A stretch of 37,388 nt of DNA, taken from the IMG/VR virus record IMGVR_UViG_2778261448_000003; one strand, given 5' to 3'. Positions 5,379 to 36,865 of the stretch are shown one piece after another. Within the stretch, counting starts at the first letter, position 1. The number at the start of each line of letters is the position of its first letter. The position numbers were made by a program, and so were the translations under genes. Below the pieces are notes generated by a model. It did no database searches. It had not been told where the DNA came from and saw only the letters and a program-made list of their open reading frames with translations. Source of the DNA: a virus. Lineage: Duplodnaviria; Heunggongvirae; Uroviricota; Caudoviricetes.

Positions 5379-5388
5379 TTCCCACCCC

Positions 5389-7132: not shown

Positions 7133-7182
7133 CACATCTCTCCTGTGCGATAAAGAAAAAGGCGGGAATATCCCGCCTGACC

Positions 7183-8211: not shown

Positions 8212-8280
8212 AATTGACTTTCCTTTAAAAACACAAACGGGCCGCATCACGACCCGTTTTTTCAGTTAATCACTTCACCA

Positions 8281-8616
8281 TCAGGCGTGGCTGATGGCAC
8301 TTCCCACAAACGCGTTGGCTTTTTTCACTGCATCCACCGAATCCGGCCAGACCAGCGATTCGGTGGCAAACGTACCGCTTTTGTAGTACGTCAGTGTGGG
8401 CTCGGTCCCGGCCAGCGCCAGTACCAGCACCCCCACAGCCGTTCCGGCTTTCTGACCATCCCATGCCACCAGTTTTCCGCTGGCGTCATCCAGCATCAGT
8501 GGCGTCAGTGAAGGCGTGGCAACACTGATACCACTGGTACCTGTTGCGGTATACACCGGATCGCTTCCGGCAAAAATGCGCCTGTCCGCGCGCTTTTCTG
8601 TGGTGGTTTTAATCAT
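8281..8616 (-). CDS. D: Head decoration protein D
   Basis: 111 aa; TPLMLD, KLVAWDG and YYKSGTF motifs as in lambda gpD. Confidence 0.85.
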   Translation of the reverse strand: MIKTTTEKRADRRIFAGSDPVYTATGTSGISVATPSLTPLMLDDASGKLVAWDGQKAGTAVGVLVLALAGTEPTLTYYKSGTFATESLVWPDSVDAVKKANAFVGSAISHA

Positions 8617-8653
8617 TTTCAGTCTCCTGATTTATCTGAATCACGGATAACGC

Positions 8654-11831: not shown

Positions 11832-12040
11832 AGCCCCACTCCTGCCGGGCCACGACGCCGTCCGGATACACCCAGCGCACTTTCCAGCTCTTCAATATAC
11901 TGACGCAGTTCACCAATTGTCGCCCGCGAATACTGAACCTGACGCCCGTCCTTGCTGACGGAAACCACAGCACGTCCGATCATCAGTTCATGTAACGCCC
12001 GGCGGGCATCGCATAGCATTTCATGCGTATAAATCATCAC
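11828..12040 (-). CDS. W: Head-tail joining protein W
   Basis: 70 aa; ARRALHELM, SVSKDGRQVQYS, RRRGPAG as in lambda gpW; position between A and B. Confidence 0.8.
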   Translation of the reverse strand: MMIYTHEMLCDARRALHELMIGRAVVSVSKDGRQVQYSRATIGELRQYIEELESALGVSGRRRGPAGVGL

Positions 12041-13960
12041 TTATCCTCCACTCAGAGCAGCCGCGATTTCTTCAATAGTCATTTCATCGTCGTCCTGTTC
12101 ATCTCTTCTGGCGCGGGCCAGTGCATCCAGATCCAGTTGCCACCGCTGAACGGAAATGCGCAGCGCTGCATAGGCATACACCAGACAGTCCAGAGCTTCA
12201 TTACGCCGTTTTCTGGCATCCCACTGGAGTTTCACCCGCCCGTTCACAACTTTTTCAACCAACTCTTCTGCCACAAGTTGTTTAGCTTCAACATCAGAAA
12301 AAATGTCCAGGTTATCCGGAAAACGGAAGGTATACGGTGCGACTTCACTGGCAGATACCACCGGCAGGGCAAAACGCGCATACAGCATTTCCTTGACGGT
12401 ATCGGAACCCACCTCACACAAAAACACCCCACGCTGGTTTCGCTTTTTTGGCATGGTGATCACCGGCTTGCCGTACACCGACGCCCCTTTGATGGGGAGC
12501 ACAAAAAAAGTGCCGTGTTTTCTGGATCGCTGATACACAATGTCCTGGTCAATACCACCGGTATCCCAGCAGACGCGGGAAATGGAAATTTCAGTGCCAT
12601 CTGCATGACGGTATTTTTTCCGGATCACGGCATCAACGCGTTTAAGGGTGTCCTCATCTTCCGGTCTCCCCATGATGATCTGCTTGTCAATCAGAAAAGC
12701 TTCTTCGCCAGGAGCCCAGCCCCAGACATAAATCTCATAACGGTTTTTCTGAGAGTCGATCCCTGCGGTCAGGTAAACCACCCGCAGGGGAACCTGCGCA
12801 TCATAGTGGCAGACTTTTTCCAGCAACAACTCAAAGCTCAGTTTTTCTGCCACAGCCTCTTCATAAGGCTCCCCCAGCGTGGTGTTAATGAACGTCTTGA
12901 CGCCATTCGGATCCTTCAGTGCATCAAGCCAGTCATAAACAATCTGTACCCAAGTGGTGAACGGGCTGTATGCCGTCCAGATGTGGTACGAGATTGAGCG
13001 CGGTGGCGGGATTTCCTCATCACCGGCGCTGTAAAATGTCAGACCGTCACGCGTCCACATCCTGGTATTGTCACAAATCCACCGCCCGTCGGTCTGGTCA
13101 AGTTCCGACTGACGGATCACGCAGCCATTATGTTCACACAGGTAATACACCGTCTCCGGCTTGCCCTTCTCCCATTTCAGGCCAAAGGTTGTCGCATCAT
13201 CGCCAAACTTCAGAGACTGGGCTTCACCACAATGAGGGCATGGCACATAAAACCGCATAAAATGTGCAGATTCGTTCGCGGCTTTTTCAATCTGGCAAAA
13301 ACCTTTAATTTTGGGCGTTGAGCCGCGTATGGATTTAGGCCATACCGAACCTTCGATACGCTTATCGCCAAGCAGAGTTGGTGAACCTTCTTTTTCCACA
13401 TCCGGTTCAAACGAGGAGAGTTCGTCATAGCAGACCACATCCACAGATTTTTCACGGTAGTTTTTGGCAGCAGCTCCGCCCAGACACCAGAATCCCACAC
13501 CGGAGGAGAAACGTTTCAGGGTAAGCGTGTTGTCCCGATGTTTTCTGCCAAACCACGGAGCCAGCTCCAGTAATACAGGAACGTCTCTTATCGTTGGTTC
13601 GACATGGGATTTCATAAAATCTTCTGCCGCAGAATCTGTCGGCTGAAAAAGCAGGCTGTTACGGGATTTGTGTTCAATAAAATAAGCCTCCACCCCCAAC
13701 AGCATTTTGGTGTAACCAACACGCGCCGATTTAATCAGATTAACGGTGCGGATCCGGTCATTCCCCATGCTGTTCATGATGGCAACCTGAAACGGCAGTG
13801 TTTCCCATTGCCCGGGAGTATATGAAGACTCTTTTGGCAGATAATAATGCTGATCAGCCCACTGAACTGTCGTCAGTGGTACCGGAATATTGAGAGATAC
13901 AAGCCCTGTTGCTATCGCACCGGCTGCATTAGCTGCCTTCTGTGCGTCTGAAATCATCAA
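12041..13960 (-). CDS. A: Terminase large subunit A
   Basis: 639 aa; [55 protein letters not shown] match lambda gpA throughout. Confidence 0.95.
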
Positions 13961-14477
13961 TCCACCCGCCTACGTTCTCACCAGCTTTAGCTGCAACGTT
14001 GGAGGCTTTTGCGATTTCAGTTTTCACCACATCAAGGTGTGACGGTGAAATATCCGGATACTTACGCTGTAATGTCAGCGGCACACGTACAAGTATCCCC
14101 GAAATCTCCTGTGCCACACGTTGCAGAATGAAGGTAAACAATTCCGTTTCCAGTACCAGCCCTTCTTCGCGGGCATTTTTCAGTTCCTGTGCATCAGCCT
14201 GTGCTTTTGTGAGTCGGTAGCGCTCATAGTCAATGGTGCCGGGTTGTAAATCTGATTCCGCAGCCGCACGCAAATCCTCGGTCTCTTTGCGGAGTTTTTC
14301 GTTTTCAATATCGGCTTCGCGCTGCGCATACCACTGAATTGCCATGGAGGTATCAAATACAGATTCAACGCCCTTACCACCTCCGGAGACGCAAGGGAGT
14401 CCCTGAGACTGCCAGCGTTCAATCGTTCGCGGATCCACGTTGAAAATTTCGGCAAGTTTCTTTTTATTAACCTTCAT
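13929..14477 (-). CDS. Nu1: Terminase small subunit Nu1
   Basis: [12 protein letters not shown]...[13 protein letters not shown]...[28 protein letters not shown] matches lambda Nu1; overlaps A start as in lambda. Confidence 0.9.
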
Positions 14478-14700
14478 GAAACGGTCTCACAACAAACACA
14501 AGGTCCGACATGAAAGTGCCCGAAAATGACTTTTTTAGGCGTTTTCATGTCGGACCTTTTACGGATTCGATATTAGAAAAAACAAATAGTTATGTTCGAG
14601 AAGTACCGACACGCTTTTTCCCGAAAAATTTTCATAAATAGCGAAAATCCGCGCCGCTGCCGCCCCGTGGCAGGCCACCCCACCGGAAGGACCCGCACAA
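14478..14700 (-). promoter_or_regulatory. cos region: cosN-like sequence (~14650-14670) plus cosB-like region with a 14-bp inverted repeat (14502-14515 / 14544-14557)
   Basis: Minus-strand reading GGGCGGCAGCGG-CGCGGATTTTCGCTATTTATGAAAATTTTTCGG is near-identical to the lambda left end (GGGCGGCGACCT-CGCGGGTTTTCGCTATTTATGAAAATTTTCCGG); lies ~177 bp upstream of Nu1. Confidence 0.8.
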
Positions 14701-18300: not shown

Positions 18301-19637
18301 ATAAGCGCTGACTTAAGGGTTGTGGTATTACGCCTGATATGATTTAACGTGCCGATGAATTACTCTCACGATAACTGGTCAGCAATTCTGGCCCATATTG
18401 GTAAGCCCGAAGAACTGGATACTTCGGCACGTAATGCCGGGGCTCTAACCCGCCGCCGCGAAATTCGTGATGCTGCAACTCTGCTACGTCTGGGGCTGGC
18501 TTACGGCCCCGGGGGGATGTCATTACGTGAAGTCACTGCATGGGCTCAGATCCATGACGTTGCAACATTATCTGACGTGGCTCTCCTGAAGCGGCTGCGG
18601 AATGCCGCCGACTGGTTTGGCATACTTGCCGCACAAACACTTGCTGTACGCGCCGCAGTTACGGGTTGTACAAGCGGAAAGAGATTGCGTCTTGTCGATG
18701 GAACAGCAATCAGTGCGCCCGGGGGCGGCAGCGCTGAATGGCGACTACATATGGGATATGATCCTCATACCTGTCAGTTCACTGATTTTGAGCTAACCGA
18801 CAGCAGAGACGCTGAACGGCTGGACCGATTTGCGCAAACGGCAGACGAGATACGCATTGCTGACCGGGGATTCGGTTCGCGTCCCGAATGTATCCGCTCA
18901 CTTGCTTTTGGAGAAGCTGATTATATCGTCCGGGTTCACTGGCGAGGATTGCGCTGGTTAACTGCAGAAGGAATGCGCTTTGACATGATGGGTTTTCTGC
19001 GCGGGCTGGATTGCGGTAAGAACGGTGAAACCACTGTAATGATAGGCAATTCAGGTAATAAAAAAGCCGGAGCTCCCTTTCCGGCACGTCTCATTGCCGT
19101 ATCACTTCCTCCCGAAAAAGCATTAATCAGTAAAACCCGACTGCTCAGCGAGAATCGTCGAAAAGGACGAGTAGTTCAGGCGGAAACGCTGGAAGCAGCG
19201 GGCCATGTGCTATTGCTAACATCATTACCGGAAGATGAATATTCAGCAGAGCAAGTGGCTGATTGTTACCGTCTGCGATGGCAAATTGAACTGGCTTTTA
19301 AGCGGCTCAAAAGTTTGCTGCACCTGGATGCTTTGCGTGCAAAGGAACCTGAACTCGCGAAAGCGTGGATATTTGCTAATCTACTCGCCGCATTTTTAAT
19401 TGACGACATAATCCAGCCATCGCTGGATTTCCCCCCCAGAAGTGCCGGATCCGAAAAGAAGAACTAACTCGTTGTGGAGAATAACAAAAATGGTCATCTG
19501 GAGCTTACAGGTGGCCATTCGTGGGACAGTATCCCTGACAGCCTACAAAACGCAATTGAAGAACGCGAGGCATCGTCTTAACGAGGCACCGAGGCGTCGC
19601 ATTCTTCAGATGGTTCAACCCTTAAGTTAGCGCTTAT
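18301..19637 (+). mobile_element. IS186 (IS4 family) insertion sequence, complete, with ~23-bp terminal inverted repeats and a ~13-bp target-site duplication GGGACTCGAACCC
   Basis: Ends CATAAGCGCTGACTTAAGGGTTG ... CAACCCTTAAGTTAGCGCTTATG; identical flanking GGGACTCGAACCC at 18288-18300 and 19638-19650; internal transposase ORF. Confidence 0.9.
18349..19467 (+). CDS. insL: IS186 transposase (DDE, IS4 family)
   Basis: 372 aa ORF MPMNYSHDNWSAILAHIGKPEELDTSARNAGALTRRREIRD... recognised as the IS186 transposase. Confidence 0.9.
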   Translation: MPMNYSHDNWSAILAHIGKPEELDTSARNAGALTRRREIRDAATLLRLGLAYGPGGMSLREVTAWAQIHDVATLSDVALLKRLRNAADWFGILAAQTLAVRAAVTGCTSGKRLRLVDGTAISAPGGGSAEWRLHMGYDPHTCQFTDFELTDSRDAERLDRFAQTADEIRIADRGFGSRPECIRSLAFGEADYIVRVHWRGLRWLTAEGMRFDMMGFLRGLDCGKNGETTVMIGNSGNKKAGAPFPARLIAVSLPPEKALISKTRLLSENRRKGRVVQAETLEAAGHVLLLTSLPEDEYSAEQVADCYRLRWQIELAFKRLKSLLHLDALRAKEPELAKAWIFANLLAAFLIDDIIQPSLDFPPRSAGSEKKN

Positions 19638-20351: not shown

Positions 20352-20426
<75 letters not shown>

Positions 20427-20429
20427 ATA

Positions 20430-20505
<76 letters not shown>

Positions 20506-20507
20506 AC

Positions 20508-20584
20508 TGGACCGCCACCGAGGACTCGAACCTCGCACACTCAACTTAAAGGGTTAACACTCTTTCTTGGTGAACTGGTGGCGG
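20508..20584 (-). tRNA. Atypical tRNA-like gene X (isotype uncertain; possible UUU anticodon with C33)
   Basis: CCGCCAC...CGAGG-TTCGAGT-CCTCG-GTGGCGG-T-CCA: perfect acceptor and T-arm, but D-loop lacks GG and anticodon loop is CCTTTAA; paralogous to tRNA-like Y. Confidence 0.45.
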
Positions 20585-20585
20585 T

Positions 20586-20661
20586 TGGTGGCCCTTGCTG
20601 GATTCGAACCAGCGACCTGGCGATTATGAGTCGCTCGCTCTCACCACTGAGCTAAAGGGCC
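20586..20661 (-). tRNA. tRNA-Ile2-like (anticodon CAU, ileX/ileZ type)
   Basis: GGCCCTTTAGCTCAGTGGTGAGAGCGAGCGACTCATAATCGCCAGGTCGCTGGTTCGAATCCAGCAAGGGCCACCA; closer to E. coli ileX than to elongator Met. Confidence 0.75.
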
Positions 20662-20687: not shown

Positions 20688-21401
20688 TCAAAAATCAAGC
20701 CCTTGCATAGATACATATCTGTCTGGCGGGAAGCCATAATAGCGGTGAAATACAGAGATAAAGTAGGATCTACTTGAATAACCGCATTTTTCTGCTACAG
20801 CCTGTCCATATCCATGCCGGGAGCATAACATATTTACAGCAACCCGCATCCGTTCCTCAAGTAACAAATTACTGAACCTGAGACCTTCATCCTTGAGTTT
20901 TTTCTTTAACAAGCTCTCACTCATATGCAACTGTAGAGCAATCGCACCAAGCGTCCAGCTTGCTGATATATCTGTTTGAATTATCGCTCTGACTTTGGCA
21001 CTTATACTGGATAAACATCCACTTAAAAATAATAACATCCGTTCATCTGATTCAAACAACGACAGGCAGGCCATCATAAGAAACATGTCCGTGGTCTCTC
21101 CGGAAAGTCTCTGGCTGGTAATTAAAGCCACAGCCAACGCAGGATTGTTGGGTTCCTGCGACAAGTAAAGCGGAATGTCAGTCAGAGGAGTTCTTGTCAG
21201 CTTATGCTGACTTTCCAGATATTGACTTACTATAGAATGGTTTATATCGACAATTTTAACTTTGCCATAATGCATAAGGAAAAGCTCCCTGATGCATTTG
21301 GTGGCCAAAACAACTGAGCCGGGCTTAAGTGACAACGTATCCTTTTCAAGAAAAATATTAATTGGGGAGCAAACCATGATAACTGAACAGACAACAGCCA
21401 T
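20688..21401 (-). CDS. AraC/XylS-family transcriptional regulator (AppY/PatE-like prophage regulator)
   Basis: C-terminal dual-HTH AraC signature (LGAIALQLHMSESLLKKKLKDEGLRFSNLLLEERMRVAVNML...AEKCGYSSRSYFISVFHRYYGFPP); start ambiguous between 21401 and 21377. Confidence 0.75.
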   Translation of the reverse strand: MAVVCSVIMVCSPINIFLEKDTLSLKPGSVVLATKCIRELFLMHYGKVKIVDINHSIVSQYLESQHKLTRTPLTDIPLYLSQEPNNPALAVALITSQRLSGETTDMFLMMACLSLFESDERMLLFLSGCLSSISAKVRAIIQTDISASWTLGAIALQLHMSESLLKKKLKDEGLRFSNLLLEERMRVAVNMLCSRHGYGQAVAEKCGYSSRSYFISVFHRYYGFPPDRYVSMQGLDF

Positions 21402-22957: not shown

Positions 22958-24013
22958 TCATGCTTTCCACTTCAGGACACCCGAATTTCTCGCGTGCATT
23001 AAAAAACGAATCAGCAACAACAGCTGGCTGCCGTGTTTTTCTTCAAAATCTTTTACCCCGGCGTGCAGTTCGTTATGACATTTACGGCACAGCGGAATAA
23101 CAAACAAATCATCAGCCTTTGTTCCCATCCCTCCCAGTCCATGACCAATGATGTGATGCGGATCATCTGCCTGATTACCGCACGTCATGCATTTCTGCGT
23201 TTTTACCCAGCGCGTGTATACAGGCATCTCTTCCCGTTGTGGTTTCTGGCGCTGGAGATACTGAGCCGGTGACTCCGAATCAACGGCAATGCTTACCACC
23301 GTCTTTTCCTGTGGCGGGTTTTGCTGGTGGGCGTGAGGCAGCGGCGCAAGATTTTTTGTGCGCTGCTTCAGTATGCTGGTGGCGGTCTGCTCTCCCGGCA
23401 CGATGTCGCTTTCACGGTACATTGGGCGGATTTTTTCCGCACGCAACCCCAGCGAACGACGTAATACCGCTTCCGGTAGCGCGTCCGCCACCTGATTGCG
23501 GACCGCCCACCAGGATAATTCAGCCAGCGATAATTCCCGCTCCTGTGTGCCATTCATTGCGTGACGGATGACGTCAATCATCCATGCTGACAGGTTTTGT
23601 TGAGCAAGTTGCCCGAGTGACTCTGATGTCTGGTCGCGCAGCTGGTTGTCACAGTGCCAGCACAATACCATCGCGCCAGTACCGTAACGATGTATGACGG
23701 TTTCACTGTGATGGTAGTCACCATGAGGCCACTGGCAGGATTTAATATGACGCAGGAGCCAGTCAGACAATGCGCCTGCGCCGCCAGCAGCACGAATCAC
23801 CCGTTCGTCGCTGAAAAATGGCAGTAATGATTTATCTTCCATCAGTGGCTGGCGAACGGCAGGAACAATCCCGGATGGCAGACCGCGCATGCTTTTCGGT
23901 TCCGGCTCCACCAGCACTCGAGGGTTATGAAATACCTGCATGGATTCACGGCCCGGCTTTAGCACCACCAGCCCAAGTTCCGGTACCGGAACAGGTCGAA
24001 GTAATACCCGCAC
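22958..24013 (-). CDS. DUF968-type prophage protein with C-terminal HNH/zinc-finger-like motif
   Basis: 351 aa; C-terminal CMTCGN...DPHHIIGHG...CRKCHNELH; occupies the nin-region slot next to rusA as YdfU-type proteins do. Confidence 0.6.
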   Translation of the reverse strand: MRVLLRPVPVPELGLVVLKPGRESMQVFHNPRVLVEPEPKSMRGLPSGIVPAVRQPLMEDKSLLPFFSDERVIRAAGGAGALSDWLLRHIKSCQWPHGDYHHSETVIHRYGTGAMVLCWHCDNQLRDQTSESLGQLAQQNLSAWMIDVIRHAMNGTQERELSLAELSWWAVRNQVADALPEAVLRRSLGLRAEKIRPMYRESDIVPGEQTATSILKQRTKNLAPLPHAHQQNPPQEKTVVSIAVDSESPAQYLQRQKPQREEMPVYTRWVKTQKCMTCGNQADDPHHIIGHGLGGMGTKADDLFVIPLCRKCHNELHAGVKDFEEKHGSQLLLLIRFLMHARNSGVLKWKA

Positions 24014-24460: not shown

Positions 24461-24616
24461 TTACTCCTCAGGTTCGTAAGCTGTGAAGACAGCGACCTCC
24501 GTCTGGCCGGTTCGGATTCGCACCTCGCAGAGGTCTTTCCTCGTTACCAGTGCCGTCACTATGACGGTTAAACAGATGACGATCAGGGCGATTAGCATCG
24601 CCTTTTGCTGCTTCAT
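24461..24616 (-). CDS. hok: Hok/Gef-family type I toxin (51 aa membrane peptide)
   Basis: Own translation: MKQQKAMLIALIVICLTVIVTALVTRKDLCEVRIRTGQTEVAVFTAYEPEE, matching HokD/RelF as recalled; absent from the ORF track because it is under 60 aa. Confidence 0.9.
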   Translation of the reverse strand: MKQQKAMLIALIVICLTVIVTALVTRKDLCEVRIRTGQTEVAVFTAYEPEE

Positions 24617-25249
24617 AGCCTGCTTCTCCTTGACCTTTCGGTCCGTAAGAGGCTAATCTCTATGTGTCGCATAGATATGGCCTCAGATTAATGTTAAGCG
24701 TCTTGCAGGACGCGTAATGTTAACTGGGGCTTTTCTCTATCTGCCGTTGGTGTTCATGCCCGAGGCAGATAGCCTCAAGCACCCACAGCCATTCTACTTA
24801 ACTACCGTTACCTCGCCAACATGAAATCAATCAGAAAGGCGAACCATAAGAACAATAACAACAATTAAATTCATTTTCTCAAATCCTGTTAACGACGCCC
24901 ATCCGACACTAACAACTTTCATTTATTATACTATTTCCCCATCGACGCTCTGCGTTGGCATAACACAAATCTGTCTGTCCGTTTGAGTAAAGAGCGGATA
25001 TCTGCAGTTTCAAAGAAACTGCGCATGCACACGAACTATCAAAGATAGTGATAACTGAGATAAAAACATATGGAAGCCTTCGGCATTTAAAAATAACAGC
25101 AAATCATATAAAAGGAAAGAGATAAGCAACATTTACATAACATGTATCACGATACGCCCCAGTGTTAATAAAAAGACTATCACTTTATTCTTTTATAATG
25201 TTAGTTTGCACTAGCAAGTGCCACTCCGAACAGAAAAAGGATACATGTA

Positions 25250-27061
25250 ATGAAGCTACAGCAATTTAATATTAAAAATTACAAGTCGATAAAAGATGAA
25301 ATAGAAGTATATATCGATGATATAGTTGTGCTAATTGGTCCAAATAACTCTGGAAAGTCAACAATATTAGATGCGTATGAAAAGTTTGCATCTTTAGGAT
25401 CAGCAAAAGGCCTGACTGCTCATGATTTTTATAACTCAGATATATCTATACCAATTGAAATGTGCGGAATTTTCACTGATATCACTGATGATGATATTCG
25501 TACATTAGGGGGAGAGAAATGGTTTTATAAAGATGATGCTCTTGACAGAAGAAATATGGCAAGAAAGTATGGGGGAGATTGGGAGAAAAATAATACACCA
25601 TTGGAAAGCAAACTCTATTATTGTGTTAAATGGGTTTGGTCACATCCAGAAAAAGCAGCCCAAAAACAATCCTATGGCCTTGATGATGCCTCTGGCAAAC
25701 GCATATTTATTGATGGGGGCTCTGGGGGACTTGACACACTACTACAAAGCCGAGTTCCTCAACCAATAAGAATAAGCCCAGATAAATCCATGGATGAAAC
25801 TAAAAAAATTATCATAAGTTTCTTAAAGGAAGATGCAAAAGATGAGTTACTGAAAACAGGGGAAAGTAAAGCTGATATAATACAGAAAATACAAGAGTTG
25901 ACAGACACTCTTATGAAAGATTCCAAATCAAAAATCGATGATCTTCTACAGCAGGTCTCCAAATCATCATCATCTGTTTTTCCTGGGCTAGAACTGGAAT
26001 TAAACATACTTTCCAAGGATCCCGTAGATGCGGATGTTATGGTTTCAGAATCTAACCTTACAGTGAAAATGGATGGGATAAATAGCTCTCTTCTCGAGAA
26101 CCAAGGTCACGGTGTTCGCCGCTCCGTTTTATGGTCTGCTTTGCAAATTTTGACTCACGAATCTCATGCACGAGATAAAATAAAAAAAGCGAAAGGTAAG
26201 CCTATCTCTGTTGAGAAAAAACAATATATTTTATTGATTGATGAGCCTGAATCATTTCTTCACCCTCCTATAATTAGAAGTGCGAGGGACTCGCTTTATG
26301 ATTTTGCAGCAAACAATGATAACTGGCAGGTGATGGCTACAACACACTCCCCTGTATTCATAGACTTATCCAAGAAGCACACGACTATAATTAGGATAGA
26401 AAAAGACAAATCTCTAAATAAAACAATATCTACAGATGAACTATCTTTTTCTGAAGAGGAAAAAGATAATATGAAAATGATAAGATTATGTAACCCAATG
26501 GTTAATGAGTTTTTCTTTTACGACAATATAATATTAGTTGAAGGACCAACTGAAAAAATCGTCATTAACAAAATATGTGATATTGTCGGAGTTGATTATC
26601 ATATCATTGACTGTTTAGGAAAAGGGAATATAAAAACATTTGCTAAAATATTAAATCAATTTAACGTTGAGTATATAGCAGTACATGACTCCGACATTCC
26701 AAAATGCTTAAAGCAAGGAAGCGTTTCAGGTAATGGAGCATGGGGTTCAAATGTATCCATAATGAACGAATGCTCTAAAAGTAAAAAACCAATGGTATTT
26801 ATTCAAATACCTCATTTCGAAGGACTGTTTTTTAAAAATTTCAATCCATCAAACAAAGTTGAAACAGTAACATCAGTTCTATCTAATAATTTAACACCAG
26901 AATACAAAGCAATATTTGATACATATAGCAGAATTTTAAACAAAGATCCTTCTGTTTTTATCAGCTCCAACGAAAAAATGATAGACATGTATCATGCATT
27001 TTATGCCAGTAATAAAAACCAAATTGAGACGCTAAAGAATCCTGAAATCTGGATCCTTTAA
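25250..27061 (+). CDS. OLD-family nuclease: N-terminal ABC-type ATPase fused to C-terminal Toprim domain (class-1, stand-alone)
   Basis: 603 aa; Walker A GPNNSGKST, Walker B/D-loop LLIDEPESFLHP, Toprim motifs LVEGPTE and HDSD; very AT-rich gene unlike the flanking prophage DNA. Confidence 0.8.
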   Translation: MKLQQFNIKNYKSIKDEIEVYIDDIVVLIGPNNSGKSTILDAYEKFASLGSAKGLTAHDFYNSDISIPIEMCGIFTDITDDDIRTLGGEKWFYKDDALDRRNMARKYGGDWEKNNTPLESKLYYCVKWVWSHPEKAAQKQSYGLDDASGKRIFIDGGSGGLDTLLQSRVPQPIRISPDKSMDETKKIIISFLKEDAKDELLKTGESKADIIQKIQELTDTLMKDSKSKIDDLLQQVSKSSSSVFPGLELELNILSKDPVDADVMVSESNLTVKMDGINSSLLENQGHGVRRSVLWSALQILTHESHARDKIKKAKGKPISVEKKQYILLIDEPESFLHPPIIRSARDSLYDFAANNDNWQVMATTHSPVFIDLSKKHTTIIRIEKDKSLNKTISTDELSFSEEEKDNMKMIRLCNPMVNEFFFYDNIILVEGPTEKIVINKICDIVGVDYHIIDCLGKGNIKTFAKILNQFNVEYIAVHDSDIPKCLKQGSVSGNGAWGSNVSIMNECSKSKKPMVFIQIPHFEGLFFKNFNPSNKVETVTSVLSNNLTPEYKAIFDTYSRILNKDPSVFISSNEKMIDMYHAFYASNKNQIETLKNPEIWIL

Positions 27062-27233: not shown

Positions 27234-27656
27234 TTACCGAACCAATTTCTTATTACTGGTATGATAAAAGTTCAACACACGCCGCATAACATCGCTCTTC
27301 CGGCACTCGCGACAGATTATGTTTAGACGCCTGTCATAGCGACGTATTTCTCCGTCTGGTAATGACCAGATAAGGTCCGGATCAACCACAGATGGTTTCT
27401 TCAGCTTTGCCCTCGAGAGTTTTTTGCGGGCGTTTTGCCAGTCTTTACGTGCCTGCTCCGACGGGAATAACCCGTAGCCAGAGTTGTATACATAACCGCT
27501 CGCAACCAGCTCTCTGGCAAGAACGCTCATCAGATATCTTGTCGCACCTGTCTTGGCTTCCAGTTGACGTAACGTCTCGCGCCCACTCTGGCGTACAAGT
27601 TCAACAACCTGCCCTTTAATTTTTTCACGCTCTTCTTGTGTAAAAACTTTTGCCAC
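27234..27656 (-). CDS. Hypothetical HTH-containing protein downstream of the replication gene (140 aa, GTG start)
   Basis: ORF in the early-right operon after the O-like gene; probable HTH around TLRQLEAKTGATRYLMSVLAREL. Confidence 0.5.
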   Translation of the reverse strand: MAKVFTQEEREKIKGQVVELVRQSGRETLRQLEAKTGATRYLMSVLARELVASGYVYNSGYGLFPSEQARKDWQNARKKLSRAKLKKPSVVDPDLIWSLPDGEIRRYDRRLNIICRECRKSDVMRRVLNFYHTSNKKLVR

Positions 27657-27696: not shown

Positions 27697-28773
27697 TTAC
27701 CCCCTGAAGCCCGGTGGAATTTCGGTATCCGGTTCAGAAATATGATTCACACAACGCTGGTTGTTCGTGCCGCTTACCTGGAGCAACCAGGGGTTTTCAA
27801 AATTCCGGTCCGGTCCAAAAAACGTCGTCGCCCGCTGAACAAATTCCGTTCCCGTTTTCCCGGTAACCGCTAGGTATCTTGCGTAACGCCTCACGCCATC
27901 CAGCATTGCCTCTGGTGGCACCCCCTCGCGTAATCTGGCCTTCCAGGCACTGAAAGCGGATTTCTTCGGGTTTGCCCCGGCACGCAACGGGTACTCCCGC
28001 CAGACCTGTTCGAACACATCCGGATAATCCACTCGTCCCACAGACTGCCCGGTGTTTTCCGGGACTACCCGATCGGCTTCCCGCTGAATGGCGGAATCGG
28101 CTTCAGGCTGCTGCAGTTGGTGTGATTGCTCCGGCCTTGCGGTCATCACCTGCTGCACAGCGCCCGAATCGGCTTTCAGCGCATACGCTGAATCGGCTTC
28201 CGGTGTCGTGCCTGCTGGCTGACCAAGATTGACGGTCTGAACATCCCCTGCCTGGTTCGTGGCGTTTTTTACGCCATGGACCATAGTGTTTTGATCTTCT
28301 TGATCTGTATCTTTATCTGTATCTTTATCTGTCGTGACTCGTCGTGACATGTGCGTGACATTTCGTGACGCGCCGTGACAATCGCCATTTTGTTCCCGCT
28401 TTCTTTCCCTCTCTCGCTGCGCCCTCTTGCGCTCTGCAGGAGATTTTGCGGTTTGCGAAATATTGCCGTTGTCCTCTTTAAGCACCTGGCGTTTTTCCCA
28501 TCCAGTGATTAAATCACCATCAAGTACCCGCCCCTGCATCGTCTGCAAAATTGAATCAATTACCTCTTCTGTCACGTCGAGCGCACTTGCCAAATCTTCT
28601 GTCGTGACATCAATGTGACCTCGCGTGACATTTCGTGACGCGCTCACCAGGAGGTGGATATACACTGCCATCACTGTTGCAATTGGCTGCCCTGACACCC
28701 TGGCAATTGTTCGCCACTTAGGGTCATTTGGCATGTCATGCCATAATCTGAGCCAGGCGTTAGCCATACTCAC
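27697..28773 (-). CDS. Replication initiation/replisome organiser protein (lambda O-like role), with internal iterons
   Basis: 358 aa; conserved phage replication-protein C-terminal region (VWREYPLRAG...FSAWKARLREGVPPEAMLDGVRRYARYLAVTGKTGTEFVQRATTFFGP); two iteron clusters inside the ORF. Confidence 0.7.
   Translation of the reverse strand: MSMANAWLRLWHDMPNDPKWRTIARVSGQPIATVMAVYIHLLVSASRNVTRGHIDVTTEDLASALDVTEEVIDSILQTMQGRVLDGDLITGWEKRQVLKEDNGNISQTAKSPAERKRAQRERERKREQNGDCHGASRNVTHMSRRVTTDKDTDKDTDQEDQNTMVHGVKNATNQAGDVQTVNLGQPAGTTPEADSAYALKADSGAVQQVMTARPEQSHQLQQPEADSAIQREADRVVPENTGQSVGRVDYPDVFEQVWREYPLRAGANPKKSAFSAWKARLREGVPPEAMLDGVRRYARYLAVTGKTGTEFVQRATTFFGPDRNFENPWLLQVSGTNNQRCVNHISEPDTEIPPGFRG
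28300..28640. repeat. Putative origin of replication: two clusters of CGTGAC iterons (28331-28380, five copies at ~10-bp spacing; 28600-28640, four copies) plus a tandem TGTATCTTTATC repeat
   Basis: Direct repeats visible in sequence, inside the O-like gene as lambda ori lies inside O. Confidence 0.65.
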
Positions 28774-28838: not shown

Positions 28839-29264
28839 TCAATGTACTGCCACAGCATTTCCTGCCGGGCCACCACGGTTCATCTGATTGAAACCGGCGA
28901 TTGCCACTGCGACAAAATCATCAGCGTCTCTCACCAATCGCTCCCGCGTCTCCACCAGCTCCCGAAAATAAGCTGAACTGTGGCTGCGCATTCTGGCCAC
29001 CAGCAAAGGCGGCATTGCCTTTTCGATCGCTGGTAACAACGCCTGAATTTTTTCAACTGCATCAGGGGTGTCTTTCTCTACCCAGCGGAAAATTTTCTGG
29101 GTATTGCGAGCCAGGGCTTCCGGATGGCTGTCGTCATACAGTTCAGGAAACGTCATACCCAACTCAAAATAAGCCTGGGTTATTCCAGCTGCCGGAACTT
29201 TTTCACCATCCGGATGCGCCCAGGCATTCATCGCCATGCGGATGTGCTCATGTTTGATTTTCAT
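28839..29264 (-). CDS. YdaT-like protein (Rac-type; cII-position gene)
   Basis: 141 aa starting MKIKHEHI, recalled as the Rac YdaT N-terminus; immediately downstream of the Cro-like gene. Confidence 0.55.
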   Translation of the reverse strand: MKIKHEHIRMAMNAWAHPDGEKVPAAGITQAYFELGMTFPELYDDSHPEALARNTQKIFRWVEKDTPDAVEKIQALLPAIEKAMPPLLVARMRSHSSAYFRELVETRERLVRDADDFVAVAIAGFNQMNRGGPAGNAVAVH

Positions 29265-29563
29265 GAATCAACTCCATCAGATAAGCATGCACTACAATCA
29301 CCTTCAGCATGAACTACATGTGTTTGCCCCAAACGAATGCCGCTCGCATACTCAGGCCAAATAAGCTCCCAATCATGGGGTCGTAGCTCCGCCCTACTTA
29401 CTTGGCCTTCCGTCGCAGATTCGATCATAAGGGCACGGGTTGGAGATATAGCTGCTCGTCCAGACGCCATTTGCGATAAGTAAGATGGCGATACACCAAG
29501 TCTGGCCGCGAATTTCTTAGCATCACCAACCCTCAATGATTTAATAAACTCTTTTAATGTCAT
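29261..29563 (-). CDS. Cro/YdaS-like HTH transcriptional regulator
   Basis: 100 aa; HTH segment FAARLGVSPSYLSQMASGR; first gene of the rightward early operon, divergent from the repressor gene. Confidence 0.7.
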   Translation of the reverse strand: MTLKEFIKSLRVGDAKKFAARLGVSPSYLSQMASGRAAISPTRALMIESATEGQVSRAELRPHDWELIWPEYASGIRLGQTHVVHAEGDCSACLSDGVDS

Positions 29564-29660
29564 ACCTTCCTCGGTTTAGTGTTTTTTTGCGAGTTTAGTG
29601 TTTAATAAACCATTAAGTCAAGTATTTGCTTGTTTAGTGATTACTAAAGATAATTACCAC
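29564..29660. promoter_or_regulatory. OR-like operator/promoter region: three copies of GTTTAGTG(T/A)TT between the divergent cro-like and repressor genes; candidate pRM-like promoter (-35 TTGCTT, -10 GATAAT) that would give a leaderless repressor mRNA
   Basis: Repeats at ~29574, 29593 and 29632; promoter hexamers spaced 17 bp apart ending just before the ATG at 29661. Confidence 0.55.
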
Positions 29661-30032
29661 ATGCAAAAAAAAGAAATTCGCCGTTTACGTCTCAAGGAGT
29701 GGTTTAAAGATAAAACTCTGCCACCCAAAGAGAAGAGCTACCTATCTCAACTAATGAGTGGGAGAGCATCGTTTGGAGAAAAGGCTGCCAGAAGAATAGA
29801 GCAAACATACGGGATGCCGGAAGGGTATCTGGATGCGGAATACGCAGAACAACCGGAGGTTTCTCCACCACATGCAGGGTTAACGCCTAATCAACTGGAA
29901 TTATTGCAGATTTTTTCAGCCTTCCCTGAGGATGAGCAACGCCAGATAATCAGCGAGTTAAAGCAGAAAAAAGAATCAATGGAAGATCTCATAGCGAGAT
30001 GGATTGCGGCGCAAAAATGCCGCCGCGCCTGA
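29661..30032 (+). CDS. CI/RacR-like prophage repressor (HTH, no peptidase domain)
   Basis: ORF 29598..30032; start placed at MQKKEIRR; HTH around KSYLSQLMSGRASFGEKAARRIE; sits in the cI position. Confidence 0.6.
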   Translation: MQKKEIRRLRLKEWFKDKTLPPKEKSYLSQLMSGRASFGEKAARRIEQTYGMPEGYLDAEYAEQPEVSPPHAGLTPNQLELLQIFSAFPEDEQRQIISELKQKKESMEDLIARWIAAQKCRRA

Positions 30033-30052
30033 GTTATAAAACCGGAGGAAAC

Positions 30053-30244
30053 ATGAATAGAGCCCTTTCACCAATGGTTTCTGAATTTGAAACCATTGAA
30101 CAAGAAAACAGTTACAACGAATGGCTGCGTGCGAAAGTAGCAACGAGCCTTGCAGATCCGCGCCCAGCAATTCCCCATGACGAAGTTGAGCGCAGAATGG
30201 CAGAACGCTTTGCTAAAATGCGCAAGGAACGGAGCAAGCAGTAA
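30053..30244 (+). CDS. ParD/RHH-like antitoxin (63 aa)
   Basis: Start MNRALSP preceded by GGAGGA RBS; stop is 1 nt before the toxin ATG; sequence character of ParD-type antitoxins. Confidence 0.6.
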   Translation: MNRALSPMVSEFETIEQENSYNEWLRAKVATSLADPRPAIPHDEVERRMAERFAKMRKERSKQ

Positions 30245-30245
30245 A

Positions 30246-30524
30246 ATGTTACCCGTGTTATGGCTTGAAAGCGCAGATACCGACCTAGATGATATAACTA
30301 GTTATATTGCTCGTTTCGACATAGATGCGGCTGAACGCTTATGGCAGCGATTAAGGGGTTGTGTGCTGCCGTTATCCGAACATCCGTATTTATACCCACC
30401 AAGCGACAGAGTACCCGGCTTGCGTGAGATTGTAGCCCACCCTAACTATATAATTCTATACCGCGTAACAACATCAAGCGTTGAAGTAGTAAACGTGATC
30501 CACGCAAGACGCCAGTTTCCCTAA
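30246..30524 (+). CDS. ParE/RelE-family toxin (92 aa)
   Basis: Start MLPVLWLESADTDLDDITSYIARF...; C-terminal YIILYRVTTSSVEVVNVIHARR typical of ParE/RelE plasmid-stabilisation toxins. Confidence 0.65.
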   Translation: MLPVLWLESADTDLDDITSYIARFDIDAAERLWQRLRGCVLPLSEHPYLYPPSDRVPGLREIVAHPNYIILYRVTTSSVEVVNVIHARRQFP

Positions 30525-30589
30525 CTTTCACTACCAATAGAAACATAGCAACCGCAACGACTTTATCAAAAGCGTTGTGTTTGTTACGC

Positions 30590-30640
30590 TCCGTGGTTTA
30601 GTTTTTACTTGACTTAAGTTTAATGTTTATTAAACTAAAA
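30590..30640 (+). promoter_or_regulatory. OL/pL-like region: GTTTAGT operator-like repeats overlapping a sigma70-like promoter (-35 TTGACT, -10 TAAACT)
   Basis: TGGTTTAGTTTTTACTTGACTTAAGTTTAATGTTTATTAAACT; shares the repeat core with the OR region; precedes the plus-strand early-left genes. Confidence 0.5.
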
Positions 30641-31945: not shown

Positions 31946-32506
31946 TTCACCCTCCTGAGGGTTGGTGATTAAGGAGTTCTCCACGGGTGAGGTGGAGTGC
32001 GTGCGCCGGACACGGGTGAGCATACGGCACTGACAGTTTACTGAAAGGATATTTCCCTGAAAAGTCAGACCATAACGCGAAAGCGCACGGCGAGGTAGCT
32101 GGTTCATAGATAGCCTGTCGTTAAATTTTCGTCGACCGTGCGCTTCCGGTTGTGGCACTCCGCGAAATGGCGCGACGGTAAGTATGGCGGGGTTATTCCT
32201 TCCCCGTTGAGGACACCGGGTTGTCAGGTTGACCATACGCTTAAGTGACAACCCCGCTACAACGCCCTCTGTTATCAATTTTCTGGTGACGTTTGGCGGT
32301 ATCAGTTTTACTCCGTGGCTGCTCTGCCGCCCTTTTTAAAGTGAATTTTGTGATGCGGTGAATGCGGCTAAGCGCACGCGGAACAGTTAAAACCAAAAAC
32401 AGTGTTATGGGTGGATTCTCTGTATCCGACGTTAATTGTTAACTGGTTAACGTCACCTGGAGGCACCAGGCACCGCATCACAAAATTCATTGTTGAGGAC
32501 GCGATA

Positions 32507-32695
32507 ATGGAAACGTTATTACCAAACGTTAATACGTCTGAAGGTTGTTTTGAAATTGGTGTCACTATCAGTAACCCTGTATTTACTGAAGATGCCATTA
32601 ACAAGAGAAAACACGAACGGGAGTTATTAAATAAAATATGCATTCTTTCAATGCTGGCCCGTTTACGTCCGATACAAAAAGGATGCTGGCAATGA
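32507..32695 (+). CDS. Hypothetical small protein (62 aa)
   Basis: Start METLLPNV; stop overlaps the start region of the next small gene. Confidence 0.4.
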   Translation: METLLPNVNTSEGCFEIGVTISNPVFTEDAINKRKHERELLNKICILSMLARLRPIQKGCWQ

Positions 32696-32883
32696 ATACA
32701 GCATTTGCACTTGTTCTGACAGTTTTTCTTGTTTCCGGAGAGCCAGTTGATATTGCAGTCAGTGTTCACAGAACAATGCAGGAATGTATGGCAGCAGCAA
32801 CCGAACAGAAAATTCCCGGTAACTGTTACCCGGTCGATAAAGTTATTCACCAGGATAGTAACGAAATCCCGGCAGGTCTTTAA
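32683..32883 (+). CDS. Small secreted or membrane-anchored protein (66 aa; N-terminal signal peptide, two Cys)
   Basis: MLAMNTAFALVLTVFLVSGEP hydrophobic leader then a hydrophilic domain. Confidence 0.45.
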   Translation: MLAMNTAFALVLTVFLVSGEPVDIAVSVHRTMQECMAAATEQKIPGNCYPVDKVIHQDSNEIPAGL

Positions 32884-32975: not shown

Positions 32976-35447
32976 ATGAGTAAAGTCTTTATTTGCGCCG
33001 CCATTCCGGACGAACAGGCAATAAAGGAAGAAGGTGCAGTCGCTGTAGCTACTGCCATTGAAGCCGGTGATGAACGTCGCGCCCGCGCAAAATTTCACTG
33101 GCAATTCCTGGAACATTATCCGGCTGCTCAGGACTGCGCTTATAAATTTCTTGTCTGCGAGGATAAACCCGGTATACCCCGCCCTGCCCTCGATTCCTGG
33201 GATGCTGAATATATGCAGGAAAACCGCTGGGATGAGGAGTCTGCTTCCTTTGTCCCGGTTGAGACTGAATCAGATCCGATGAACGTCACTTTTGACAAGC
33301 TGGCCCCTGAAGTACAGAACGCTGTCATGGTTAAGTTCGACACATGTGAAAACATCACTGTTGATATGGTGATTAGCGCACAGGAATTGTTGCAGGAAGA
33401 CATGGCAACATTCGACGGCCATATCGTTGAAGCGTTGATGAAAATGCCAGAAGTAAACGCCATGTATCCGGAGCTTAAGCTGCATGCCATCGGGTGGGTT
33501 AAGCATAAATGTAAGCCTGGTGCCAAATGGCCCGAAATTCAGGCAGAGATGTGCATCTGGAAAAAACGTCGCGAAGGTGAACGCAAGGAAACCGGAAAAT
33601 ACACGTCTGTTGTTGATCTCGCCCGCGCCAGACCCAATCAACAGAACACTGAAAATTCAACAGGAAAAATCAACCCGGTCATTGCTGCCACTCATCGCGA
33701 ATACAAGCAGACATGGAAAACACTGGATGACGAACTGGCCTACGCTCTCTGGCCTGGTGATGTGGATGCCGGAAACATTGACGGCAGCATCCATCGCTGG
33801 GCAAAAAATGAAGTTATCGACAACGACCGCGAAGACTGGAAGCGTATCTCGGCATCAATGCGCAAACAGCCTGATGCCCTTCGCTACGACCGCCAGACTA
33901 TTTTTGGCCTTGTCCGTGAACGTCCGATCGACATTCACAAAGACCCTGTGGCACTGAACAAATACATTACTGAATACCTGACTACAAAGGGCGTGTTTGA
34001 AGATGAAGGAAGAAATCAGAGCGCAACTGATACTCTCTCGTCGCCAGTACCAGAAACTGATGCAGTGGAAACGGCAATTCCGGACAACGAAAAAACCGAA
34101 TGCAAAGTGGAAGTCGAACCATCTGTAGAGCGTGAGGGGCCGTTCTACTTCCTCTTCACCGACAAGAATGGCGAAAAATACGGTCGCGCAAACAAACTTT
34201 CTGGTCTGGATAAGGCGCTGGCTGCCGGGGCTACTGAAATCACGAAAGAAGAATATTTCGCCCGCAAAAACGGTACATACTCAGGTTCACAACAAAATAC
34301 TGGTGCATCTGACACGACCGCACAACCAGAGCCGGTAAAAGTTACCGCTGACGAAGTAAACAAAATTATGCAGGCAGCCAATATCAGCCGGCCTGACGCC
34401 GATGAACTGCTTGCAGTATCACGTGGTGAATTTGTTGCAGGGATTAGCGATCCGAATGATCCGAAATGGGTGAAGGGGATTGAAACCCGCGATTCTGTGA
34501 ACCAGAACCAGCAAGAAACGGAACAGAACGACCAGAAAGCGGAACAAAACAGCCCAAATGCGTTACAAAATGAGCCAGAAACGAAACAATCCGAACCAGT
34601 AGCGCAACAGGAACCGGAAAAAGTCTGCACCGCCTGCGGTCAGAGCGGTGGCGGCAACTGCCCTGATTGTGGCGCGGTGATGGGCGACGCAACATACCAG
34701 GAAACATTCGATGAAGAGAATCAGGTTGAAGTTCAGGAAAATGATCCGGAGGAAATGGAAGGCGCTGAACATCCACACAAGGAGAACCCTGGCGGCAATC
34801 AGCATCACGCCAGCGATAATAAAACTGGCGAGGCGACAGATCCCTTAATTAAGGTGAATGGTCATTATAAGCTCACATCCACCAGCAGAGCGGGGATTCA
34901 TCTGATGATCGACCTTGAAACAATGGGAAAAAATCCCGATGCCCCGATTATCTCAATAGGCGCAATATTTTTCGATCCACAAACCGGAGAGATGGGGCCG
35001 GAATTTAGCAAGACCATCGATCTGGATACGGCTGGCGGAGTCATTGATCGTGACGTCATTAAATGGTGGCTGAAGCAATCACGTGAAGCGCAGTCTGCCA
35101 TTATGACCGATGAAATCCCGTTAGATGATGCACTACTGCAATTGCGGGAATTTATCGACGAAAACTCCGGTGAATTTTTTGTTCAGGTCTGGGGTAATGG
35201 GGCCAACTTCGACAACGTGATTTTACGCCGTTCATACGAACGACAGGGTATCCCCTGCCCGTGGCGCTACTGCAACGATCGCGATGTACGCACAATCGTT
35301 GAGCTGGGGAAAGCCATAGACTTCGATGCCAGAACTGCTATCCCATTCGAAGGTGAGCGCCATAATGCACTTGATGACGCTCGTTACCAGGCAAAATACG
35401 TTTCAGCTATCTGGCAAAAACTGATCCCGAGTCAGGCTGATTTTTAA
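32976..35447 (+). CDS. RecE (exodeoxyribonuclease VIII)-like early protein with C-terminal DEDD-type 3'-5' exonuclease domain
   Basis: 823 aa; central LLAVSRGEFVAGISDPNDPKWVKGIETRD segment recalled from Rac RecE; C-terminal DLETMG...NGANFD...HNALDDARY is a DnaQ-like DEDDh signature; Cys4 motif CTACG...CPDCG. Confidence 0.6.
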   Translation: MSKVFICAAIPDEQAIKEEGAVAVATAIEAGDERRARAKFHWQFLEHYPAAQDCAYKFLVCEDKPGIPRPALDSWDAEYMQENRWDEESASFVPVETESDPMNVTFDKLAPEVQNAVMVKFDTCENITVDMVISAQELLQEDMATFDGHIVEALMKMPEVNAMYPELKLHAIGWVKHKCKPGAKWPEIQAEMCIWKKRREGERKETGKYTSVVDLARARPNQQNTENSTGKINPVIAATHREYKQTWKTLDDELAYALWPGDVDAGNIDGSIHRWAKNEVIDNDREDWKRISASMRKQPDALRYDRQTIFGLVRERPIDIHKDPVALNKYITEYLTTKGVFEDEGRNQSATDTLSSPVPETDAVETAIPDNEKTECKVEVEPSVEREGPFYFLFTDKNGEKYGRANKLSGLDKALAAGATEITKEEYFARKNGTYSGSQQNTGASDTTAQPEPVKVTADEVNKIMQAANISRPDADELLAVSRGEFVAGISDPNDPKWVKGIETRDSVNQNQQETEQNDQKAEQNSPNALQNEPETKQSEPVAQQEPEKVCTACGQSGGGNCPDCGAVMGDATYQETFDEENQVEVQENDPEEMEGAEHPHKENPGGNQHHASDNKTGEATDPLIKVNGHYKLTSTSRAGIHLMIDLETMGKNPDAPIISIGAIFFDPQTGEMGPEFSKTIDLDTAGGVIDRDVIKWWLKQSREAQSAIMTDEIPLDDALLQLREFIDENSGEFFVQVWGNGANFDNVILRRSYERQGIPCPWRYCNDRDVRTIVELGKAIDFDARTAIPFEGERHNALDDARYQAKYVSAIWQKLIPSQADF

Positions 35448-35508: not shown

Positions 35509-35778
35509 ATGAGCGAACAGTACCTGATAACGCTCGATGAGTGGAAGCCAAAACGGTTCAGTCTCCCAATAACAAACACTACCCTGGTGAAATACGGAAA
35601 ACTAGGATACATCGTTCCAAGACCACAAAAAATTCGTGGGCGTTGGCTGATAGATCGCCGGGCAGTATTTGTTGGACCTGGTGAAACGGGAATTGCGCCG
35701 GAAATTCATACTGGCGATGATGATGCACTGAAGGAGATTTTAACTCATGTCACCGAGGCCACGAAAAAACAGCACTGA
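35509..35778 (+). CDS. xis: Excisionase-like DNA-binding protein (Xis)
   Basis: Small basic protein immediately upstream of and overlapping int, in the lambda xis position. Confidence 0.6.
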   Translation: MSEQYLITLDEWKPKRFSLPITNTTLVKYGKLGYIVPRPQKIRGRWLIDRRAVFVGPGETGIAPEIHTGDDDALKEILTHVTEATKKQH

Positions 35779-36865
35779 CGTAACCGGTCTTTACGAAAAG
35801 TTTGATCGCAGAACTGGCAGGGTTTACTACCAGTATAAAAACCCTGTGACTGGAAAATTTCACGGTCTCGGAACAGACAAAGGCAAAGCAGAAAAAATCG
35901 CTTCCACAGCCAATCAGCGAATAGCTGCAGCAGAAGCTGAATATTTCATGCGCAAAATTGATGAAAGTCCGTCAGCAACAAAACGTCGGGGTATCAGATT
36001 AAAGGCATGGGTTGATCGATATCTGAAAATACAGGACGCGCGACTGAAAAATGGAGATATTGCAGCAACAACTCACAAAGAAAAAGCCCGAATGGCTGCA
36101 TACCTGGTTTCCCGTCTGGGAAACCACCCATTGAAAGAACTGGAAGTAAGAGACTTTGCATTAATACTGGATGAGTGGCTGGATAAAGACATGGTCAGCA
36201 CAGCGAGAGTAAATCGTGGATTATGGGTTGATATTTATAAAGAAGCACAGCATGCAGGGGAAGTTCCTCCTGGATGGAATCCTCCGGAGGCTACCCGTAA
36301 ACCGATCCCTAAAGTAACCAGAGCCAGACTCACCCTGGAGGACTGGCAAAAAATTTACAATTCAACACCAGAAAAACACTTTATCCGTAACGCAATGCTT
36401 CTTGCGATTGTTACTGGTCAGCGCCGTGATGACATTTGCCACATGCGTTTTTCAGATGTGTGGAACGAACACTTGCATATCACCCAGGGAAAAACCGGAA
36501 TGCGTCTGGCGTTACCGCTTACGCTACGCTGTGATGCCATTGGAATATCGCTAAAAGAAGTGATTGATGGATGCAAGGACAGAATATTGAGTCCATACCT
36601 GATTCATAGTCGGCACCAGAAACAACCAAAACCAATGAGTAAAGATAACCTGAGCGACTACTTTGCTAAAGCGCGGGATCTGGCAGGAATAACTCCACCA
36701 GCAGGAAAAACACCACCAACATTTCATGAACAACGCTCCCTGTCAGAACGACTGTACCGCGCACAGGGTATCGATACAAAAACATTACTGGGACATAAAG
36801 TCCAAGCAACCACCGATCGTTATAACGATACTCGTGGTCAGGAATGGGTTAAATTGGTTGTTTGA
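35747..36865 (+). CDS. int: Tyrosine integrase (lambda Int family)
   Basis: 372 aa; C-terminal catalytic region LAIVTGQRRDD...HEQRSLSERLY...LLGHK...TTDRYNDTRGQEW aligns with lambda Int R-H-R-Y active-site segments. Confidence 0.9.
   Translation: MSPRPRKNSTDVTGLYEKFDRRTGRVYYQYKNPVTGKFHGLGTDKGKAEKIASTANQRIAAAEAEYFMRKIDESPSATKRRGIRLKAWVDRYLKIQDARLKNGDIAATTHKEKARMAAYLVSRLGNHPLKELEVRDFALILDEWLDKDMVSTARVNRGLWVDIYKEAQHAGEVPPGWNPPEATRKPIPKVTRARLTLEDWQKIYNSTPEKHFIRNAMLLAIVTGQRRDDICHMRFSDVWNEHLHITQGKTGMRLALPLTLRCDAIGISLKEVIDGCKDRILSPYLIHSRHQKQPKPMSKDNLSDYFAKARDLAGITPPAGKTPPTFHEQRSLSERLYRAQGIDTKTLLGHKVQATTDRYNDTRGQEWVKLVV

Follow-up and report, generated by a model that had tools for sequence, protein, structure and literature searches.

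The DNA analysed here (the window) is a stretch of 37,388 nucleotides, IMG/VR record IMGVR_UViG_2778261448_000003, and is a lambdoid prophage lying in reversed orientation. The locus of interest is a pair of short ORFs on its plus strand. The first, paaA2 (30053-30244), opens with an ATG at 30053 and runs for 63 codons to a TAA stop at 30242-30244; the second, parE2 (30246-30524), opens with an ATG at 30246 and runs for 92 codons to a stop at 30522-30524. A single spacer base (30245) separates the two genes, and the parE2 start is placed for translational coupling with paaA2, whose own ATG has a GGAGG motif 7 nt upstream when the sequence is read directly. The pair shares its strand with the repressor gene paaR2 (29661-30032) and follows it immediately: just 20 nt separate the paaR2 stop from the paaA2 start, and a promoter scan called no promoter-like site between them. 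The earlier note on this DNA had described ORFs of 63 and 92 aa that lie 1 nt apart and follow a repressor gene in the same orientation, and its coordinates proved exact. We set aside a longer, GTG-initiated reading of the toxin gene (30150-30524, 124 aa), as the crystallised ParE2 begins MLPVLW. We also attribute the antisense minus-strand ORFs at 29976-30170, 30068-30178, 30112-30237 and 30298-30402 to chance, the plus-strand frames being fully explained.

Both proteins correspond to proteins of known structure. In a PDB sequence search the 63-aa protein was 100% identical to PaaA2 (3ZBE, 5CW7 and 5CZE; E=5.5e-37) over query residues 2-63, and the 92-aa protein matched ParE2 (5CW7 chain B and 5CZE; E=7e-60), an entry titled 'plasmid stabilization protein ParE', at every one of its 92 residues. 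Pfam gave the same answer, with PF21217 (PaaA2) found in the 63-aa protein at 70.7 bits against a cut-off of 27 (E=1e-19) and PF05016 (ParE_toxin) found in the 92-aa protein at 60.9 bits against a cut-off of 23 (E=1.9e-16). Because the Pfam and PDB matches are so strong, both ORFs are real, far beyond what chance would produce. Three features of a PaaR-PaaA-ParE module are present: a ParE-family toxin, a PaaA-type antitoxin just 5' of the toxin, and a separate helix-turn-helix (HTH) regulator directly upstream on the same strand. Judged by sequence, the pair is almost certainly paaA2-parE2 of the three-component paaR2-paaA2-parE2 module that lies in the immunity region of a CP-933P/Sp12-type lambdoid prophage of E. 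coli.

These searches bear on whether the pair could instead be a canonical two-component ParD/ParE system, in which a ribbon-helix-helix (RHH) antitoxin, together with the toxin, autoregulates the pair and neutralises a gyrase-poisoning ParE. The earlier note had called the larger ORF ParE-like and the smaller one RHH/ParD-like, and had proposed searches with ParD, ParE and RelE models. The Pfam search bore out the first of these assignments and not the second: the 92-aa protein scored above the ParE_toxin cut-off and is identical to a solved ParE2 with the ParE fold, whereas PaaA2 was the only family matched by the 63-aa protein, with no RHH, ParD or RelB family found at E<=0.1. The toxin does have its family, PF05016, in common with canonical modules such as RK2 ParDE, Caulobacter ParDE1 (PDB 3KXE) and Vibrio cholerae ParDE2; ParE2 weakly matches solved canonical toxins, for example Caulobacter ParE1 (3KXE, E=3.6e-5); and its overexpression likewise gives an SOS phenotype of the DNA-damage type. 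RefSeq, moreover, labels the antitoxin 'RelB family antitoxin'. However, PaaA2 differs from the canonical antitoxins in having neither an RHH domain nor a part in autoregulation, a separate repressor being present instead; in the literature, PaaA2 has no DNA-binding motif and regulation is left to PaaR2, YdaS and YdaT (PMC8630535); ParE2 reportedly does not bind GyrA59; and the 20-nt gap ahead of paaA2, in which no promoter-like site was called, also argues against a self-regulating pair. We therefore regard the canonical reading as extremely unlikely, and its DNA-binding part is ruled out by the solved PaaA2 structures and by published assays. Because PaaA2 lacks a DNA-binding domain, the system is one of three components, in which the repressor PaaR2 is the transcriptional regulator of the toxin-antitoxin genes.

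The third component, paaR2, encodes a 123-aa CI-analogue repressor, identified from PDB matches, from its identity to the E. coli O157:H7 strain SS17 protein and from published work (PMC8630535). Over residues 1-65 the protein has the same sequence as PDB entries 7NKV and 8C3K, titled 'Phage repressor protein CI', and 120 of its 123 residues are identical to the SS17 protein, the three changes (E66G, V67G and P76S) falling just beyond residue 65, where identity to the solved N-terminal fragment ends. N-terminal sequencing has confirmed the start MQKKE, and transcription begins at the A of the ATG, making the mRNA leaderless (PMC8630535); we accordingly dropped a GTG-initiated repressor ORF of 144 aa (29598-30032). 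PaaR2, unlike lambda CI, has no peptidase domain for RecA-mediated autocleavage (PMC8630535). Divergent from paaR2, on the minus strand, lie ydaS and ydaT. The first (29261-29563) encodes a Cro analogue of 100 aa that matches Pfam PF15943 YdaS at 46.2 bits as well as HTH_3, and is identical at 99 of 100 residues to the SS17 protein and at all 100 to that of Escherichia phage Evi. The second (28839-29264) encodes a CII analogue of 141 aa that matches PF06254 YdaT_toxin at 39.6 bits and the CII-like activator family phrog_163 (E=3e-45); it is identical at 120 of 141 residues (85%) to the SS17 protein and at 137 of 141 to the phage Evi protein. Both the YdaS and the YdaT scores lie above the curated Pfam cut-offs.

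Between ydaS and paaR2 is a 97-bp divergent control region (29564-29660), the analogue of OR, containing operators and the promoters PR933P and PRM933P. PR933P is a promoter-like site on the minus strand (TTGACT-18-TAAACT, 29621-29592) that reads into ydaS-ydaT; PRM933P, which serves the leaderless paaR2, was read from the sequence as GATAAT at 29649-29654. In CP-933P the half-site consensus of the operator palindrome has been reported as GTTTAGTAA. We searched the entire 37-kb window for the pattern GTTTAGTN4ACTAAAC, allowing at most three mismatches, and obtained four matches where chance would give 1.06. Every one of them lies in one of two clusters, 29593-29649 (palindromes at 29593-29610 and 29632-29649) in the OR analogue and 30596-30635 (palindromes at 30596-30613 and 30618-30635, plus strand) in an OL analogue beyond parE2. 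Each cluster overlaps a promoter-like site, that in the OL analogue being PL933P (TTGACT-16-TAAACT, 30609-30636, plus strand), which reads away from the operon; the PR and PL hexamers are identical, as has been reported for PL933P. The claim that the pair is flanked by OR-like and OL-like operators is thus borne out by every palindrome match in the window. At the junction of ydaS and ydaT, where footprinting has defined the YdaT site (PMC9986795), lies the primary YdaT operator OM (29254-29271), TTGATTTTCATGAATCAA; it is the sole match in the window to TTGATTN6AATCAA and has no mismatches. The region thus has the features of a lambdoid immunity switch, namely divergent repressor and Cro-like genes, repeated operators that recur at PL, and a CII-like activator whose own operator is present. 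Between parE2 and PL, at about 30546-30586 on the plus strand, RNA folding predicts a stem-loop; the segment 30522-30600 folds at -18.9 kcal/mol (z=-2.88 relative to shuffled sequence). A scan of the plus strand for consensus terminators called none after parE2, and the stem-loop is without a clean U-tract, yet it may act as a t_imm-like terminator of the operon.

The remainder of the prophage surrounds this switch with genes of several kinds. Long minus-strand ORFs occupy positions 1-14500 and, from their position, are presumed to be tail and head genes. The late-gene region also contains an IS transposase of 372 aa (DDE_Tnp_1, 18349-19467, plus strand), near which lie a cluster of tRNA-Gly, tRNA-Thr and tRNA-Met genes (20352-20661, minus strand) and a gene for an AraC-family regulator (20688-21401, minus strand). 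A DUF968 gene (22958-24013) is followed by an Rfam match to the sok antisense RNA (24614-24784, minus strand; 101 bits against a gathering score of 59), which by its sequence indicates a putative hok/sok-type type I toxin-antitoxin locus and hence a probable second addiction module of the prophage; hokD lies at the equivalent place in O157:H7. Farther on is a gene for an OLD-family nuclease of 603 aa (25250-27061, plus strand; PADLOC Old, E=3.4e-73; Pfam AAA_15 and an OLD-like TOPRIM domain), which looks like a defence moron because its strand is opposite to that of the flanking replication and nin-region genes. A 140-aa protein (27234-27656, minus strand) matches phrog_142, 'Ren-like exclusion protein' (E=6.9e-44), and its gene adjoins that of a 358-aa replication initiator (27697-28773). 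DicF and a putative dicB follow the immunity region. The DicF sRNA match lies at 32281-32332 (plus strand; 75 bits against a gathering score of 48), and after it, within 32402-32883 on the plus strand, come an ORF that we take to be DicB-like ('METLLPNVNTSEGCFEIG...') and a second ORF at a position annotated as DUF1482/ydfD-family in related loci. This DicF/DicB-like region is probably a Qin-type cell-division-inhibition cassette 3' of PL. An exonuclease gene (32976-35447) and an integrase gene (35747-36865) complete the features that we placed.

The module itself is already known: earlier papers cover its structures and regulation and also draw the parallel with rexAB. It has been described by Hallez 2010, Sterckx 2012-2016, Jurenas 2021 (PMC8630535) and Prolic-Kalinsek 2023 (PMC9986795), and the copy in CP-933P of E. 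coli O157:H7 EDL933 is identical to that in Sp12 of strain Sakai. For CP-933P we used the SS17 copy, from O157:H7, as the reference. The two prophages match in gene order and spacing, throughout the 97-bp control region and at the OL/PL site; PaaA2 (63 of 63 residues) and ParE2 (92 of 92) are identical; and the paaA2-parE2 DNA differs at two bases (30217 and 30416), both changes being synonymous. Positions 29535-29767, which cover the whole control region, show zero base differences. Published 5'RACE, EMSA and footprint data therefore hold for the exact sequence found here, and, the proteins being identical or nearly so, the other published measurements apply almost directly. The prophages differ in the surrounding mosaic, in YdaT, in the genes 3' of PL and in the replication gene, for which the window has the 358-aa initiator-like protein and O157:H7 has HTH and ATP-binding proteins.

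In published work on this module the three genes form an operon, and PaaR2 and YdaS both footprint across the paaR2-ydaS intergenic region and repress PRM and PR, although at low level PaaR2 stimulates PRM and represses PR (PMC8630535). PaaR2 and YdaS each repress PL933P about 100-fold, and a PRE-like promoter between ydaS and ydaT is activated by YdaT (PMC8630535). The locus is bistable and the state of the switch is inherited; the toxin-antitoxin genes are transcribed in both states, and single-cell work found no ParE2 activity in either, judged by the lack of excess SOS induction (PMC8630535). PaaA2, which lacks a DNA-binding domain, is broken down by ClpAP and ClpXP, and ParE2 colocalises with the nucleoid and on overexpression induces SOS (Hallez et al. 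2010, summarised in PMC8630535). The locus equalled ccdAB in stabilising an unstable mini-F plasmid (PMC8630535), and post-segregational killing via ClpAP and ClpXP has been published for proteins identical to those of the window. With identical proteins and the same control region, the literature thus shows that the genes form an operon and are repressed, that ParE2 is toxic and PaaA2 neutralises it, and that post-segregational killing occurs. For the window, co-transcription with and repression by PaaR, toxicity of ParE, neutralisation by PaaA and lability of the antitoxin would carry over from the CP-933P work on those proteins and that control region.

By the mechanism that the literature has established with these proteins and this control region, PaaR2 made from its leaderless mRNA would bind the repeated operators of the 97-bp region and the second site 3' of parE2, where it would repress PR (and with it ydaS-ydaT) and PL; at low concentration it would boost PRM, from which paaR2, paaA2 and parE2 would be co-transcribed. 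The Cro-like YdaS would compete for the same operators, giving a bistable switch, and the CII-like YdaT would turn on a second promoter, PRE, likewise reading into the operon. PaaA2 would bind and neutralise ParE2 while being degraded by ClpAP and ClpXP. Were the locus lost, PaaA2 would decay and free ParE2 would act at the nucleoid, with SOS induction and a killed or arrested cell as the outcome, that is, addiction through post-segregational killing. We infer, as the authors of these studies propose, that in nature the module protects the prophage, and in particular its immunity region, from being lost or replaced through recombination. The published evidence for stabilisation comes from plasmids rather than from the prophage itself.

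The arrangement resembles cI-rexA-rexB of phage lambda, in which cargo genes between OR and OL/PL share a PRM-type promoter and transcript with the repressor gene; the cI and paaR2 mRNAs are, in addition, both leaderless. The earlier note had placed a toxin-antitoxin pair in the rexAB slot, had expected it to be expressed in the lysogen and had suggested that it might stabilise the prophage. The position from repressor to OL/PL is confirmed, and the same idea is explicit in PMC9986795; published work on identical proteins finds transcription in both switch states, the lysogenic one included; and the suggested stabilisation agrees with the addiction published for identical proteins, as shown on plasmids. 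Moreover, ParE2 has a solved ParE fold, is toxic in published work and is transcribed in both states of the switch, so that none of the observations by which the earlier note would have been overturned was made. Its central interpretation is therefore supported as essentially right, with the class of the antitoxin and the number of components in need of correction.

[quoted passage not shown] Neither protein of the pair showed homology to RexA or RexB: Pfam gave PaaA2 and ParE_toxin only, and PADLOC gave nothing. We nevertheless considered whether the main natural role might be Rex-like, such that infection would shut off synthesis of PaaA2 or degrade it, ParE2 would be freed, and a superinfecting phage would be excluded or its infection aborted. 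Its rexAB position and its expression with the repressor are what such a role would call for, and the protease-lability of PaaA2 follows the common trigger logic of toxin-antitoxin-based defence. In addition, the OLD-family nuclease and the Ren-like protein are other defence or exclusion genes, and since both are present the prophage does collect defence cargo. However, PADLOC models matched none of PaaR2, PaaA2, ParE2 and YdaT (YdaS gave a weak HTH_VI match, E=0.0074); no anti-phage activity of PaaA2-ParE2, and no abortive-infection or phage-exclusion test of the pair, was found in the literature searched; activation of ParE2 was not seen under the conditions tested; and the authors who have studied the module favour addiction and genome stabilisation. 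Taken together, a Rex-like main role seems to us improbable, and stabilisation remains the preferred role. Killing of recombinants after a swap of the immunity region has been proposed (PMC8630535). More tentatively, and as a rather unlikely possibility, paaA2-parE2 in less decayed prophages, such as this one, and in the isolated phage Evi might serve either as a Rex-like device by which the lysogen aborts other phages or as a means of killing immunity-swapped recombinants ('immunity-region addiction').

To assess how widespread the module is, we examined its distribution. Of 5426 complete E. coli genomes, 595 have the 1097-bp segment from OR through paaR2-paaA2-parE2 to OL at >=80% coverage; the copies are mostly 98-99% identical, and their carriers include O157:H7, O111 and O121 strains. 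A few genomes match the paaA-parE part alone. Among phages in the collection searched, the module was found only in Escherichia phage Evi, a coliphage isolated from infant faecal samples, other ParE matches being distant Vibrio elements of about 33% identity. The Evi segment is 97.9% identical and its ParE2 100% identical; the parE2 ORF there is intact but unannotated (LR597642.1, 24917-25192 of the record; L002, 21047-21325). Outside the immunity region the mosaic of the window is unlike both CP-933P and Evi, and no complete E. coli genome covers >=80% of the 25-kb stretch at 12400-37388.

These data speak directly to the possibility that the locus is a decaying relic without current function, its ORFs hitch-hiking in a defective prophage. 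CP-933P, where the module has been studied, is indeed cryptic (PMC8630535, PMC9986795), and steady-state growth showed no phenotype. Yet neither frame is broken, distinct strains encode identical proteins, the DNA differences from O157:H7 within the pair are all synonymous, the module recurs at high identity in hundreds of complete genomes and in an isolated coliphage, and the identical locus works in plasmid-stabilisation assays. We give this explanation next to no credence, and it is effectively ruled out by the post-segregational killing published with identical proteins.

A PaaR1-PaaA1-ParE1-type version of the cassette occupies the same slot, from repressor to PL and opposite ydaS-ydaT, in two further loci from heteroimmune prophages, L003 from E. 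coli RM9245 (paaA/parE-containing locus, 2181-3481) and L004 from STEC2017-197 (2574-3481), for which the names PaaR1, PaaA1 and ParE1 are presumed. The PaaA proteins of these loci are 92-95% and the ParE proteins 91-93% identical to those of the window, the toxins having three extra C-terminal residues. Their repressors have a PaaR2-like C-terminal region in common with that of the window, whereas the N-terminal HTH region of the L004 repressor and the L004 Cro-like protein are unrelated to those of the window, and the L003 counterparts have diverged. As the N-terminal HTH regions differ, immunity specificity presumably differs as well. L003 has two tandem regulator genes upstream of the pair, one PaaR2-like, though diverged, and one with an L004-like HTH. 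These loci suggest that the cassette travels between immunity types, consistent with CP-933M, in which the second, homologous system of O157:H7 sits (PMC8630535). The recurrence of the cassette behind different repressors is also compatible with selection for the slot.

Annotation of the module trails the literature. In PHROGs the PaaA2 and ParE2 families (phrog_3936 and phrog_2455) carry the label 'unknown function'; in RefSeq, PaaR2 is a 'hypothetical protein' and the antitoxin has the RelB label; and the phage Evi record leaves out parE2. To what has been published the window adds a differently mosaic prophage with identical toxin and antitoxin proteins, and little else that is new. About 11% of complete E. 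coli genomes hold this immunity type, and other immunity types bear the cassette too, which supports paaA-parE as a common and conserved occupant of the slot from repressor to PL in the lambdoid prophages of E. coli.
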